In this document: piece by piece, positions 6,519 to 7,550 of the stretch | How positions within the stretch are numbered: position 1 is the stretch's first letter | Layout of the letters: each line of letters begins with the position of its first letter | Virus record (IMG/VR): IMGVR_UViG_3300020576_004053 | Span: 1 to 64,000 of that record | Source of the DNA: a virus | Taxonomy: Duplodnaviria; Caudoviricetes | Reading direction: 5' to 3' (one strand) | DNA: 64,000 bases | The notes under the pieces: model-generated | The model's database searches: none | What the model was told of the DNA's origin: nothing | What the model saw: the letters and a program-made list of their open reading frames with translations, nothing else | Made by a program: the position numbers and the translations under genes

Positions 6519-7550
6519 TTATCCTGTATATCGTATTAAAGATGCAAATGAAGATTGCATCCAATCATCCAACCGAGGGAAGGCTCCCATCATTTTACCG
6601 GTGATGAAGCATTTTGTCAACATAAGCTTGTTAAGCTCATGAATAGGGGCATTGAATTTTTCTAAGACGCTAATTTTTGTCAATCCCGACATTGATACTT
6701 CGTCGAGTCGCATGAGTTTGTAATTACGTTCAAGAATATGTCGTGACGCCAACAATTCATTTAATGTCTTTGATGGTTTCGCCAAGGCATCAACACGACG
6801 TTGGGCATGCGCCAAGATATCATCAATGGATACGGGTTGATCGGACGCCAACTCTGGAAAATATTTCAAGATGGTCTTGACTTGAAATCCGTGCACTCCC
6901 GGCACATTATCGGATGCGTCACCGCTGATCACCCGATACATCAAGAAATTGATCGGGTGCACTCCATAATCTGCGGTGATCATGGTTGGATTGTACATCT
7001 TCTTTTTCACCCCATTCCACACCGCAATATCGGTACCGGTAACTAATTGTAGAAAATCCTTATCGGTACTCATGATAATTGCCTTACCACCTTCATTGGA
7101 CACCACATGCTGCGCTAAATATGCAATGACATCATCTGCTTCAACATTATCTGCCGTGATTACCGTACAGGGAATGAATTGTAACAGATAATTCAGAATC
7201 TTCAGTTGCCACGCCATGGAGTGCTGCTCTTCATCCACCGTCTGGAAATCGTAGAAGCGGTTTAAACGCGTCTTAACCGACCGGTGTTCTTTATAGTCGC
7301 TGAATAATGCCCGTCGCTTCGTACTACCACCCATCCCATCAAAGCAAATCACTACACGTGTCGGCTTATGCATACGGATAGATGCGGCCAAACTCTGTAG
7401 GAATGCCGTGATGCCACCAATATGTTTACCTTCTTCATTCATTGTGCTAGTCGCCGCGAATGCGCGTATGAAGAGATTTAGCTAAAGACCATCTACTAAT
7501 AAAACTTTAGAGTTTTTATTAGTGATGGTCATTCCTCCGTAGGTATTCAT
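6519..7550 (-). CDS. 5'-3' exonuclease / flap endonuclease (T4 RNase H, PolI N-terminal family) with an in-frame TAG at 7482-7484
   Basis: Track ORF 6519-7442 has CFDG, YKEHR, EADDVIAYL, STDKDFLQL, GDASDNVPGV but lacks the first motif. The same frame upstream reads MNTYGGMTITNKNSKVLLVDGL*LNLFIRAFAATST. Confidence 0.9.

Follow-up and report, generated by a model that had tools for sequence, protein, structure and literature searches.

The window, which is the whole stretch of 64,000 nucleotides analysed here, carries on its minus strand a 5'-3' exonuclease (FEN) gene with an in-frame stop close to its start. The 5' end of this gene contains a predicted hairpin, and an endonuclease gene lies beside it. 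The features are as follows.

7547..8482, minus strand: free-standing endonuclease gene, with a NUMOD3 and a PD-(D/E)xK-like domain from weak Pfam matches.
7485..7550, minus strand: FEN upstream reading frame, 22 codons in translation, from ATG 7550-7548 to the take-off CTT 7487-7485.
7533..7538, minus strand: Shine-Dalgarno-like GGAGGA, 2 nt 5' of the hairpin base, lineage-specific.
7487..7530, minus strand: predicted hairpin, with 5' arm 7530-7514, loop 7513-7505, 3' arm 7504-7487 and a bulged A at 7494.
7479..7487, minus strand: putative recoding site CUU UAG CUA, with take-off Leu CTT 7487-7485, in-frame stop TAG 7484-7482 and landing Leu CTA 7481-7479.
6519..7478, minus strand: FEN downstream part, from AAT 7478-7476 to the stop 6521-6519, in the same frame as the upstream part by translation.

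The interrupted gene belongs to the FEN family, as indicated by its PF02739 and PF01367 domains and its N-terminal VDG carboxylate strand. Precomputed Pfam matches to both domains are found in homologues that include a 95%-identical protein (P0001), and the PDB matches of another homologue, P0003, are the Pol I 5' nuclease, T5 FEN and T4 RNase H. The upstream frame has GGAG 8 nt ahead of its ATG and codes for KVLLVDG, the first beta strand, which bears the first conserved Asp. By way of P0003, VLLVDG aligns without gaps to the N-termini of the Taq and mycobacterial Pol I 5' nucleases. The sequence across the junction is GGU CUU UAG CUA AAU, and if the ribosome hops, the nine bases CUU UAG CUA would be read as one Leu. 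Uninterrupted homologues lack exactly six bases, a stop and a Leu codon. The peptide encoded before the stop is 22 residues long in the window, and in relatives it has about 32. Megablast of the window against cultured phages gave no match, and an initial locus search with a single protein gave no relative.

The interruption recurs in many phages and has a constant arrangement. Thirty-seven distinct interrupted FEN alleles were found in metagenomic phages. The stop is UAG in 17 of them, UGA in 13 and UAA in 7, and all three are used, often among close relatives. The take-off codon is CUU in 25 alleles, CUG in 7, CUC in 5 and CUA in none, while the uninterrupted CTN controls have CTA in 24/76 and CTT in 16/76 (p = 3.5e-5 and 2.5e-6, respectively, against the interrupted alleles). 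The landing codon is CUN in 34/37 alleles, and CUN stands on both sides of the stop in 34/37. The other three have GUG, which is a two-of-three match, (G)UG and an ambiguous codon. All pattern matches have a C-initial landing codon, even though the search pattern permitted NTN. The original prediction held that such complementarity would be improbable beside a random nonsense mutation. The larger set of alleles bears this out, since a stop that recurs at the same codon boundary, in all three forms and followed by a CUN codon, is not random.

The spacing of conserved residues suggests that a hop would restore the normal protein. The distance from the DG-Leu codon to a downstream motif is exactly 36 nt in 233/233 uninterrupted loci. 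In the interrupted loci it is 42 nt, with two exceptions, one of 41 and one of 46. Because the spacing is invariant without the interruption, only a hop would restore the family length, and, with synonymous codons around one stop, this spacing appears to fit the hop product only. One interrupted locus (L003) has a 5-nt gap that changes the frame, so it could not be repaired by readthrough. Another (L171, on a contig with a coverage of only 0.87x) would require a 10-nt hop or a +1 shift. Judging from the sequences, both halves of the gene stay under selection, and the junction looks like a hop site.

The hairpin is long and much more stable than expected for this coding sequence. It has 17 bp and one bulge, A7494, or 19 bp with the two loop-closing pairs C7512-G7505 and U7511-A7506. 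The outer segment pairs GACCATC (7530-7524) with GATGGTC (7493-7487), and the inner segment pairs ACTAATAAAA (7523-7514) with TTTTATTAGT (7504-7495). The outermost pairs, GACC/GGUC, extend over the Gly codon to the first base of the take-off codon, the C of CUU at 7487, which forms the last pair. The hairpin had been described in this form from the letters alone, and both the coordinates, checked on the minus strand, and the RNAfold structure agree with the description. Its minimum free energy (MFE) is -19.7 kcal/mol, compared with a mean of -7.55 (sd 2.18) for 200 dinucleotide shuffles, none of which was equally stable (z = -5.57). Comparison with synonymous codon choices had been proposed as a check. 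When the 22 codons upstream of the stop were resampled synonymously with the codon usage of the same genome, only 8/2000 sequences were as stable as the native fold (-21.1, against a mean of -9.65 and sd of 3.2). The amino acids encoded in the 5' arm already reflect the pairing, which makes this a conservative test. A contig from a separate sample (L002, 95% protein identity) has a hairpin and stop identical to those of the window, which excludes an assembly error. The predicted hairpins of natural variants have 14-27 bp. No Rfam 15 covariance model matched the hairpin on either strand at E values up to 1 in 7300-7700.

Conservation and covariation indicate that selection maintains the hairpin as a structure in the mRNA of FEN. 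In a consensus fold of nine interrupted alleles, 96% of the cells are paired, compared with 23-59% in slid controls, and 7/17 pairs have compensatory changes. Covariation scored 0.44 in these alleles and 0.21 in shuffles, 0/500 of which reach the native value. The Asp codon's third base is paired as T-A in 17 of the 37 alleles, as C-G in 19 and as T·G in 1, with no mismatches, and the third base of the Gly codon behaves in the same way, covarying with the 5' arm. The amino acid encoded by the 5' arm (Thr, Ala or Pro; Ile or Val) thus tracks the synonymous codon used in the 3' arm. Covariation among relatives carrying the stop had been predicted, and compensatory changes are indeed abundant there. 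The 37 alleles contain 48 G·U pairs and 2 A·C mismatches, and the sense strand folds better than the antisense strand in 26/37, so the structure is likely to be on the sense mRNA.

The hairpin is associated with the stop, but it is not exclusive to interrupted genes. Of the distinct interrupted alleles, 36/37 have a hairpin that pairs the Asp-Gly codons, compared with 13/156 of the uninterrupted ones. In samples taken from IMG/VR using patterns free of 5'-arm sequence, the numbers are 27/28 and 4/76 (Fisher p = 1e-19), and the mean MFE is -25.8 for interrupted and -10.0 for uninterrupted alleles. Hairpin-free outgroup or cultured uninterrupted genes have values of -1.4 to -6.5 kcal/mol. The original prediction expected the hairpin to be absent from uninterrupted alleles, and an equal presence there was to count against it. 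The expectation holds for most uninterrupted alleles, which lack the hairpin, but fails for the nearest uninterrupted relatives of the window (L169, L170, L006, L249 and L247), in which the same hairpin is equally strong (-20 to -29 kcal/mol). Since it exists in these relatives without the stop, the hairpin may have another primary function. The idea that it is an ancestral, family-wide structure unrelated to the stop was overturned by larger and matched samples and by the hairpin-free outgroups.

The gene tree adds to this picture. Nine phylogenetically independent contrasts gave a borderline result (p about 0.06): stop and hairpin occur together in about five, none shows the opposite, and about four are tied. 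The interruption is polyphyletic, with at least 14 changes needed, and the AU test rejects a single clade (p = 9e-8). One uninterrupted allele with a hairpin, L247 (P0051), groups within a clade of interrupted alleles and has apparently lost the six bases secondarily, so the hairpins of uninterrupted alleles may be relics. The hairpin regions of interrupted alleles are more alike than their gene bodies, and one locus (L255) has the gene body of one clade joined to a window-like 5' segment. Shared ancestry of a transferable 5' segment could account for part of the association of hairpin and stop. On its 3' side the predicted pairing ends at different points in different alleles, anywhere between the Gly codon and the landing codon, so the precise geometry of the window is not universal.

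The refolding 5' hairpin probably acts as the stimulator of a programmed 6-nt stop-hop in FEN. We infer from comparison of the alleles both that the hop occurs and that the hairpin drives it. The ribosome would pass through the 3' arm of the hairpin, which codes for VLLVDG, and would then hold peptidyl-tRNA-Leu on CUU in the P site, with UAG in the A site being decoded slowly. Behind the ribosome the hairpin would re-zip, starting at its loop and proceeding outward. The last G+C-rich pairs, GACC/GGUC, would need the E-site Gly codon and the first base of CUU to be extracted from the ribosome, and for this reason zipping is proposed to compete with codon-anticodon pairing in the P site and to drag the mRNA in the 5' direction. 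The tRNA would release CUU, which it reads by wobble, and re-pair with CUA six bases downstream. Translation would restart at AAU and give a FEN with exactly the invariant length of the family.

A broader proposal, for which the case seems to us evenly balanced, is that T4-related phages have a natural, widespread and probably mobile recoding signal. It would consist of a zipper hairpin over the E- and P-site codons and a CUY/CUG-stop-CUN sequence, with the hairpin pulling the mRNA so that tRNA-Leu hops six bases over any stop. This would be the first natural in-frame stop-hop and the first bypass signal with a conserved, covarying 5' structure. The six-base insert may spread as an immunity tag against the neighbouring homing endonuclease.

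Other explanations give the hairpin or the stop a different role. The hairpin might be a general regulator of FEN mRNA (such as a translation attenuator, an element for mRNA stability or processing, or an operator through which the structure-specific nuclease controls its own expression) that is older than the stop and independent of it, the stop having arisen or been tolerated in lineages with the hairpin. This is unlikely but deserves weight, because strong hairpins, some of them covarying, are found in uninterrupted genes: A4 has a covarying one of 18 bp that includes the Leu codon, L249 and L247 fold at -29.3 and -20.5 kcal/mol, and a register-shifted hairpin of 18 bp with seven compensatory pairs is found in the Asp-Ala-Leu clade. 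The uninterrupted sister also has a hairpin in about 4/9 of the independent contrasts. Such a regulator does not account for the presence of the anchored hairpin in only 5-8% of uninterrupted but 96-97% of interrupted alleles, nor for the hairpin-free outgroups, and L247, with its apparent secondary loss, suggests that the uninterrupted hairpins may be relics. No cleavage site or regulator could be identified, and there is no Rfam match. A role of the inverted repeat as DNA, in which a recombination or homing-endonuclease element (a target, immunity site or cruciform) spreads the six-base insert and the RNA fold is a by-product, is very improbable. It would suit the polyphyly of the interruption and the composite locus L255, and homologous endonuclease genes adjoin the interrupted FEN, although only in the window and L171. 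Most interrupted loci have no endonuclease gene nearby, the excess of G·U over A·C and the better folding of the sense strand point to RNA, and the arms diverge widely in sequence while keeping their pairing, which does not fit a sequence-specific protein site. This explanation also accounts for the spread of the insert and not for expression of the gene, and it is compatible with a stop-hop. That the gene is a pseudogene with a chance or relic hairpin is hardly credible. The stop does fall in frame in the most conserved part of FEN, but 37 deeply diverged alleles keep both halves open, the catalytic motif in frame, the CUN codons and a compensated hairpin, and the same stop is present in an independent sample.

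Readthrough of the stop, or production of two polypeptides by termination and re-initiation, would require no hop, and the hairpin might help by holding the ribosome or by placing GGAGG near the restart. Several observations are in keeping with this. The stop of the window is in frame, a C directly follows the stop in 34/37 alleles and provides a weak termination context, and two alleles have GUG directly after the stop. Folding of the hairpin would put GGAGGA about 8 nt from the landing codon of the window. There is also an odd genome-encoded tRNA whose anticodon loop could present CUA; this tRNA would be insufficient, since relatives have UGA and UAA at the same site. No tRNA genes were found within the window. 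Readthrough of UAA is very inefficient in bacteria, and the use of three different stops, often in close relatives, argues against readthrough, as does the frame change in L003. With the spacing invariant in the 233 uninterrupted loci, a protein longer by two residues would have no counterpart in the FEN family. Genome-wide reassignment of stops is not seen: amber suppression or TAG reassignment was considered and rejected, as TAG ends 35/224 long frames and opening TAG lengthens frames least of the three stops. Re-initiation is disfavoured because CUN and not a start codon follows the stop in 34/37 alleles, and many interrupted alleles have no Met 3' of the stop suited to a restart. A restart product would be without the strand bearing the first catalytic Asp, and GGAGG is not general. 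Overall, readthrough or re-initiation seems very improbable, and the stop-hop stimulated by the hairpin is the preferred reading.

Very few natural cases of translational bypassing are known, T4 gene 60 and yeast mitochondrial inserts being the main ones. The FEN site resembles gene 60 in having take-off and landing codons that match (CUU and CUA), in the stop immediately 3' of the take-off codon (UAG 7484-7482), in being in a replication gene of a T4-like phage, and in the link to a neighbouring homing endonuclease in some genomes. The loop of the 5' hairpin is about 23 nt 5' of the take-off codon in FEN and 26 nt in gene 60. The proposed displacement in FEN, however, is 6 nt instead of 50, with the same frame resumed, and the gap is formed by 3 nt and the landing codon. 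FEN has no take-off stem-loop or conserved structure 3' of the take-off codon and no mini-Shine-Dalgarno sequence 6 nt ahead of the landing site, and its take-off codon is Leu CUY/CUG, not Gly GGA. The 5' hairpin is nearly universal and covarying in interrupted FEN genes, while the 5' stem-loop of gene 60 is not conserved among gene 60 homologues (bioRxiv 10.1101/2022.08.31.505936). The premise of the original prediction that gene 60 bypassing needs this stem-loop was therefore overstated. Pairing of the mRNA exiting the ribosome has been proposed as the forward driver of gene 60 bypassing (bioRxiv 10.1101/2024.12.09.627546).

The closest designs are synthetic. Stop-hops between matched codons flanking a stop work in E. 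coli, as found by Weiss, Atkins, Gesteland and colleagues and reviewed in PMC5009743. The order is the same as in FEN, with a sense codon, a stop and a synonymous sense codon, and nine bases would stand for one amino acid. The synthetic sites are artificial, have low efficiency and lack stimulators, whereas the FEN site is natural, occurs in many phage lineages and has a strong 5' hairpin. The 2016 review knew of no natural in-frame stop-hop (PMC5009743), and literature searches found none reported since. If true, FEN would be the first natural case.

The prfB (RF2) frameshift site is also similar. It too has a P-site CUU, an A-site stop and a weak-context base next, and interrupted FEN alleles likewise strongly prefer CUU for take-off. 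On 70S ribosomes, +1 frameshifting at CUU-UGA is stimulated by a stable hairpin adjoining the E site, with about 60% of the effect of the prfB Shine-Dalgarno sequence (PMC6321510), and an upstream duplex by the E site is proposed to push the ribosome forward in FEN as well. The FEN duplex reaches over the E-site codon into the first base of the P site, whereas a prfB-type duplex stops 3 nt short. The downstream frame of FEN is the zero frame and not +1, so a +1 slip would be unproductive in the window; only L171 would fit a +1 shift. The linear sequence of the window has no Shine-Dalgarno-like sequence 3 nt 5' of CUU. Its GGAGGA is 46 nt upstream in this linear form and would be near CUU, at about 3 nt as in prfB, only with the hairpin folded. 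This motif is lineage-specific. GGAGG is at the same position in 8/9 close interrupted alleles and 0/156 uninterrupted alleles, but in pattern-sampled sets not conditioned on GGAGG it occurs in 2/26 and 4/77, with no enrichment, and its role as a general co-signal was withdrawn.

Work on gene 60 has left open the question of whether forward movement can be driven by mRNA that refolds behind the ribosome. FEN offers a minimal 6-nt system with dozens of variants, including every stop, several pairs of take-off and landing codons, and matched uninterrupted alleles with and without the hairpin. An "exiting-mRNA zipper" model would become directly testable on these variants.

Some other elements near the site are variable. 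The sequence TTTAGCTAAA (7486-7477) is a perfect palindrome around the stop, as had been pointed out, but it arises from CUU-UAG-CUA-AAU in the window only, is missing from most relatives and is incidental. A CGCG..CGCG hairpin at about 7465-7450 was considered as a take-off hairpin and rejected, as it is broken in L002. The stop codon of the endonuclease gene overlaps the FEN start in ATGA. L002, otherwise near-identical to the window, has no endonuclease gene, and L171 has a 43%-identical homologue in the same place beside its interrupted FEN. No endonuclease homologue was found in the other loci that were searched, and a 375-aa frame upstream in L004, examined as a candidate, showed no similarity to the endonuclease of the window. 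Gene callers truncate or split interrupted FEN genes, and among the best 120 database FEN homologues, 7/7 short forms start at a Met after the stop.

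The hairpin that precedes the internal stop of the flap endonuclease gene is a selected mRNA structure, linked tightly though not exclusively to a recurrent Leu-stop-Leu interruption. The record is a 143-kb metagenomic phage, of which the window covers the first 64 kb, and the phage has a T4-like replication module (gp32-like SSB, UvsX/RecA, and a DnaB-type helicase). The interrupted gene is predicted to encode a 5'-3' exonuclease/flap endonuclease (FEN). Its homologues carry PF02739 and PF01367, and their PDB matches are the Pol I 5' nuclease, T5 FEN, and T4 RNase H. The relevant features are as follows.

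7550-7482, minus strand: FEN upstream frame, from the ATG at 7550 to the TAG at 7484-7482; the frame reads MNTYGGMTITNKNSKVLLVDGL
to 6519, minus strand: FEN downstream part, 320 more codons after the TAG in the same frame as the upstream part
8482-7547, minus strand: free-standing homing-type endonuclease gene with NUMOD3 and a REase_MTES_1575-like domain, abutting the FEN start

The first conserved Asp is on the VLLVDG strand, which aligns without gaps with GRVLLVDGHH of the Taq enzyme and is upstream of the stop; therefore the downstream frame alone cannot yield an intact enzyme.

The interruption consists of a short insertion at a fixed place. Uninterrupted homologues read VDG-L-N-x-[FY]-[ILM]-R while the window reads VDG-L-stop-L-N-L-F-I-R, so that the window has exactly six additional bases. 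Every one of the 233 uninterrupted loci has 36 nt between its DG-Leu codon and the [MLT]N[DE][DE]G motif further on; in interrupted loci the spacing is 42 nt, except for one of 41 and one of 46. Among the 120 best database homologues, seven are "short" proteins starting at a Met after the stop, and all seven are interrupted at the same place. An IMG/VR scan with a degenerate pattern, covering the junction and four downstream codons but no 5'-arm sequence, gave 50 further FEN matches. The distinct interrupted alleles number 37 in all. Gene callers have cut interrupted FENs to the first Met after the stop (database proteins P0001, P0008, P0009, P0038, P0054, P0058, and P0067), and in P0010 the caller's extension ran in the wrong frame; public protein sets therefore contain N-terminally wrong FEN models.

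The stops of the 37 alleles are UAG (17), UGA (13), and UAA (7), and the take-off codons are CUU (25), CUG (7), CUC (5), and never CUA. In the 35 alleles with a 6-nt insert the landing codons are CUC (11), CUU (10), CUA (7), CUG (6), and GUG (1), the last at locus L167 (CUG UAG GUG AAC, L167:440-455). The landing codon begins with C in all pattern matches, although the pattern permitted NTN. For comparison, a matched set of uninterrupted alleles having CTN at the site includes CTA in 24/76 and CTT in 16/76, giving p = 3.5e-5 for avoidance of CUA at take-off and p = 2.5e-6 for preference of CUU. Two loci depart from the usual insert. L003 has only five additional bases (CUG UAG UG AAC, L003:2950-2975), and its sequence implies a frame change with GUG as the landing triplet. 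L171, on a contig with 0.87x coverage, has ten (CUU UAG AUACAUC AAU, L171:1945-1965), which could be passed by a hop of 10 nt, by slipping +1 at CUU-UAG-A, or by reading UAGA as a four-base codon.

In the window the hairpin occupies 7487-7530 on the minus strand (5' arm 7530-7514, 3' arm 7504-7487), and every coordinate of the original prediction is correct on re-examination of the sequence. As described there, RNAfold gives a 17-bp stem in which A7494 is bulged, with two further pairs closing the loop; the energy is -19.7 kcal/mol (z = -5.57 relative to dinucleotide shuffles, with 0/200 equally stable). The proposed synonymous-codon control, using the genome's own codon usage, gives -21.1 for the native sequence versus -9.65 ± 3.2, with equal stability reached by 8 of 2000 resamples. 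Locus L002, from a different sample and 95% identical in protein, has a hairpin and stop identical to those of the window.

Relatives that carry the stop show the covariation that had been anticipated. In a gap-free alignment of nine closely related interrupted alleles, pairing is intact in 96.1% of cells for the 17 pairs, seven of which have changed on both sides. Covariation scores 0.444, compared with 0.213 in shuffles (none of 500 reached the observed value), and sliding the partner by 1-3 columns lowers pairing to 23-59%. All 37 interrupted alleles have a hairpin of 14-27 bp and -17 to -37 kcal/mol, with widely different arm sequences. In the Asp codon, the synonymous third base forms T-A in 17, C-G in 19, and T·G in one, with no mismatch; in the Gly codon it forms T-A in 10, C-G in 15, T·G in five, G-C in two, and A-T in two, and is unpaired in three. 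Thus synonymous codon choice in the conserved 3' arm sets which amino acids (Thr, Ala or Pro; Ile or Val) the 5' arm encodes. G·U pairs number 48 and A·C mismatches two, and the sense strand is more stable in 26/37; therefore the structure acts in mRNA, not in DNA or antisense RNA. On its 3' side the predicted pairing ends, depending on the allele, anywhere from the Gly codon to the landing codon, so the exact geometry is not fixed.

Absence of the hairpin from uninterrupted alleles, also predicted, is largely borne out by allele counts and not by the nearest relatives. If a hairpin is called anchored when its minimum free energy over 63 nt does not exceed -17 and it pairs five or more of the six Asp-Gly bases, it is found in 36/37 interrupted and 13/156 uninterrupted distinct alleles. 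Two like-drawn IMG/VR samples give 27/28 versus 4/76 (Fisher p = 1e-19), with mean energies of -25.8 and -10.0 (Mann-Whitney p = 8e-14). These alleles are phylogenetically non-independent, and nine independent contrasts on a FastTree of 193 gene bodies put the hairpin with the stop in about five, against it in none, and tied in about four (p ~0.06). The nearest uninterrupted relatives have equally strong hairpins. Loci L169, L170, L006, and L066 share an 18-bp consensus with five compensatory pairs and the Leu codon within its base, and L249 and L247 fold at -29.3 and -20.5 kcal/mol. An uninterrupted Asp-Ala-Leu clade (L156, L100, L139, L108, L027, and others; alignment A3) has a different covarying 18-bp hairpin about 8 nt further upstream. 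Among cultured or outgroup genes, those of Microcystis phage Mel-JY01, Flavobacterium phage immuto, and LR756508 are uninterrupted and fold at -1.4 to -6.5 kcal/mol, with no hairpin. A first reading, that the hairpin is ancestral and unrelated to the stop, was overturned by the larger samples.

The interruption has changed state many times, at least 14 on the 193-row tree and seven on a 54-row IQ-TREE (at least six forced), and an AU test rejects a single interrupted clade (log-likelihood difference 474, p = 9e-8). Among interrupted alleles the hairpin regions are more alike than the gene bodies. Identity between the window and L005 is 80% over the hairpin region and 59% over the body, while for L169, the closest uninterrupted body, the values are 60% and 63%. 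L255 joins an Asp-Ala-Leu-clade body to a 5' segment like that of the window. The uninterrupted P0051/L247 (L247:661-800) is nested inside an interrupted clade. Its codon spacing is of the interrupted type, its outer stem is weakened, and GGAGAAA replaces GGAGGAA; with the partly decayed hairpin that would be expected, it looks like a precise secondary loss of the six bases. The simplest history is that a 5' segment with hairpin and insert spread laterally and that the insert was later lost on occasion, which would make the hairpins of uninterrupted alleles relics or precursors.

Several ways of passing the stop can be compared. A suppressor tRNA or code change is excluded, as all three stops are in use, and no genome-wide stop reassignment was found in the phage genome. 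Readthrough is argued against by the invariant spacing and by L003, and re-initiation by the CUN codon after the stop; many interrupted alleles have no Met after it. The reading that fits all these observations would be a hop of peptidyl-tRNA-Leu from CUY or CUG over the stop to CUN. The codon arrangement is the same as in synthetic "stop-hops", for which no natural case was known to a 2016 review (PMC5009743), and a literature search found none reported later.

The hairpin is best explained as a probable driver of this proposed hop. With CUU in the P site and the stop in the A site, the hairpin would close again behind the ribosome as far as the E site. In the window its last four pairs (GACC/GGUC) take in the Gly codon at the E site plus the C of CUU, and therefore completion of the helix needs several bases of forward mRNA movement. 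Completion would compete directly with P-site pairing on a wobble-read codon, and the tRNA would then re-pair on the CUN six bases downstream. That CUA is avoided at take-off and accepted at landing fits a weak-take-off, strong-landing logic. When a stable hairpin adjoins the E site of CUU-UGA, 70S ribosomes are pushed forward, with an effect about 60% as large as that of the prfB SD duplex (PMC6321510), and pairing of the exiting mRNA has been proposed as the forward driver in gene 60 (bioRxiv 10.1101/2024.12.09.627546).

Other candidate signals are less general. GGAGGA is found at 7538-7533, 2 nt before the hairpin, and GGAGG is at this position in 8/9 close interrupted alleles, in two different reading frames, versus 0/156 uninterrupted ones. 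It is not enriched in unbiased samples (2/26 interrupted versus 4/77 uninterrupted), and it is lineage-specific and possibly auxiliary. Neither the palindrome around the stop nor a small downstream hairpin is conserved. In L027, L100, and L036 of the Asp-Ala-Leu clade, the 5' arm of that clade's own hairpin has AGGAGG paired to the Val-Leu codons.

The endonuclease gene beside FEN fits the analogy with gene 60 and mobA, whereas most interrupted loci have no such gene. It is absent from L002, and among the loci searched a homologue was found only in L171 (43% identical, at the same place, L171:948-1889). Outside the window the phage genome has a tmRNA (tag GTNTRLALAA; G000:C1:98815-99162, minus strand) and 30 tRNAs at 101-138 kb, including tRNA-Leu(UAG) at 117890-117973. 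A tRNA-like gene at G000:C1:102597-102670 (minus strand) has an anticodon loop of 8 nt (CCUCUAAU) or 6 nt and is called tRNA-?(Arg|Pyl) by ARAGORN; its anticodon could be CUA or the four-base UCUA, or the gene could be a tRNA-Arg(UCU) that is damaged.
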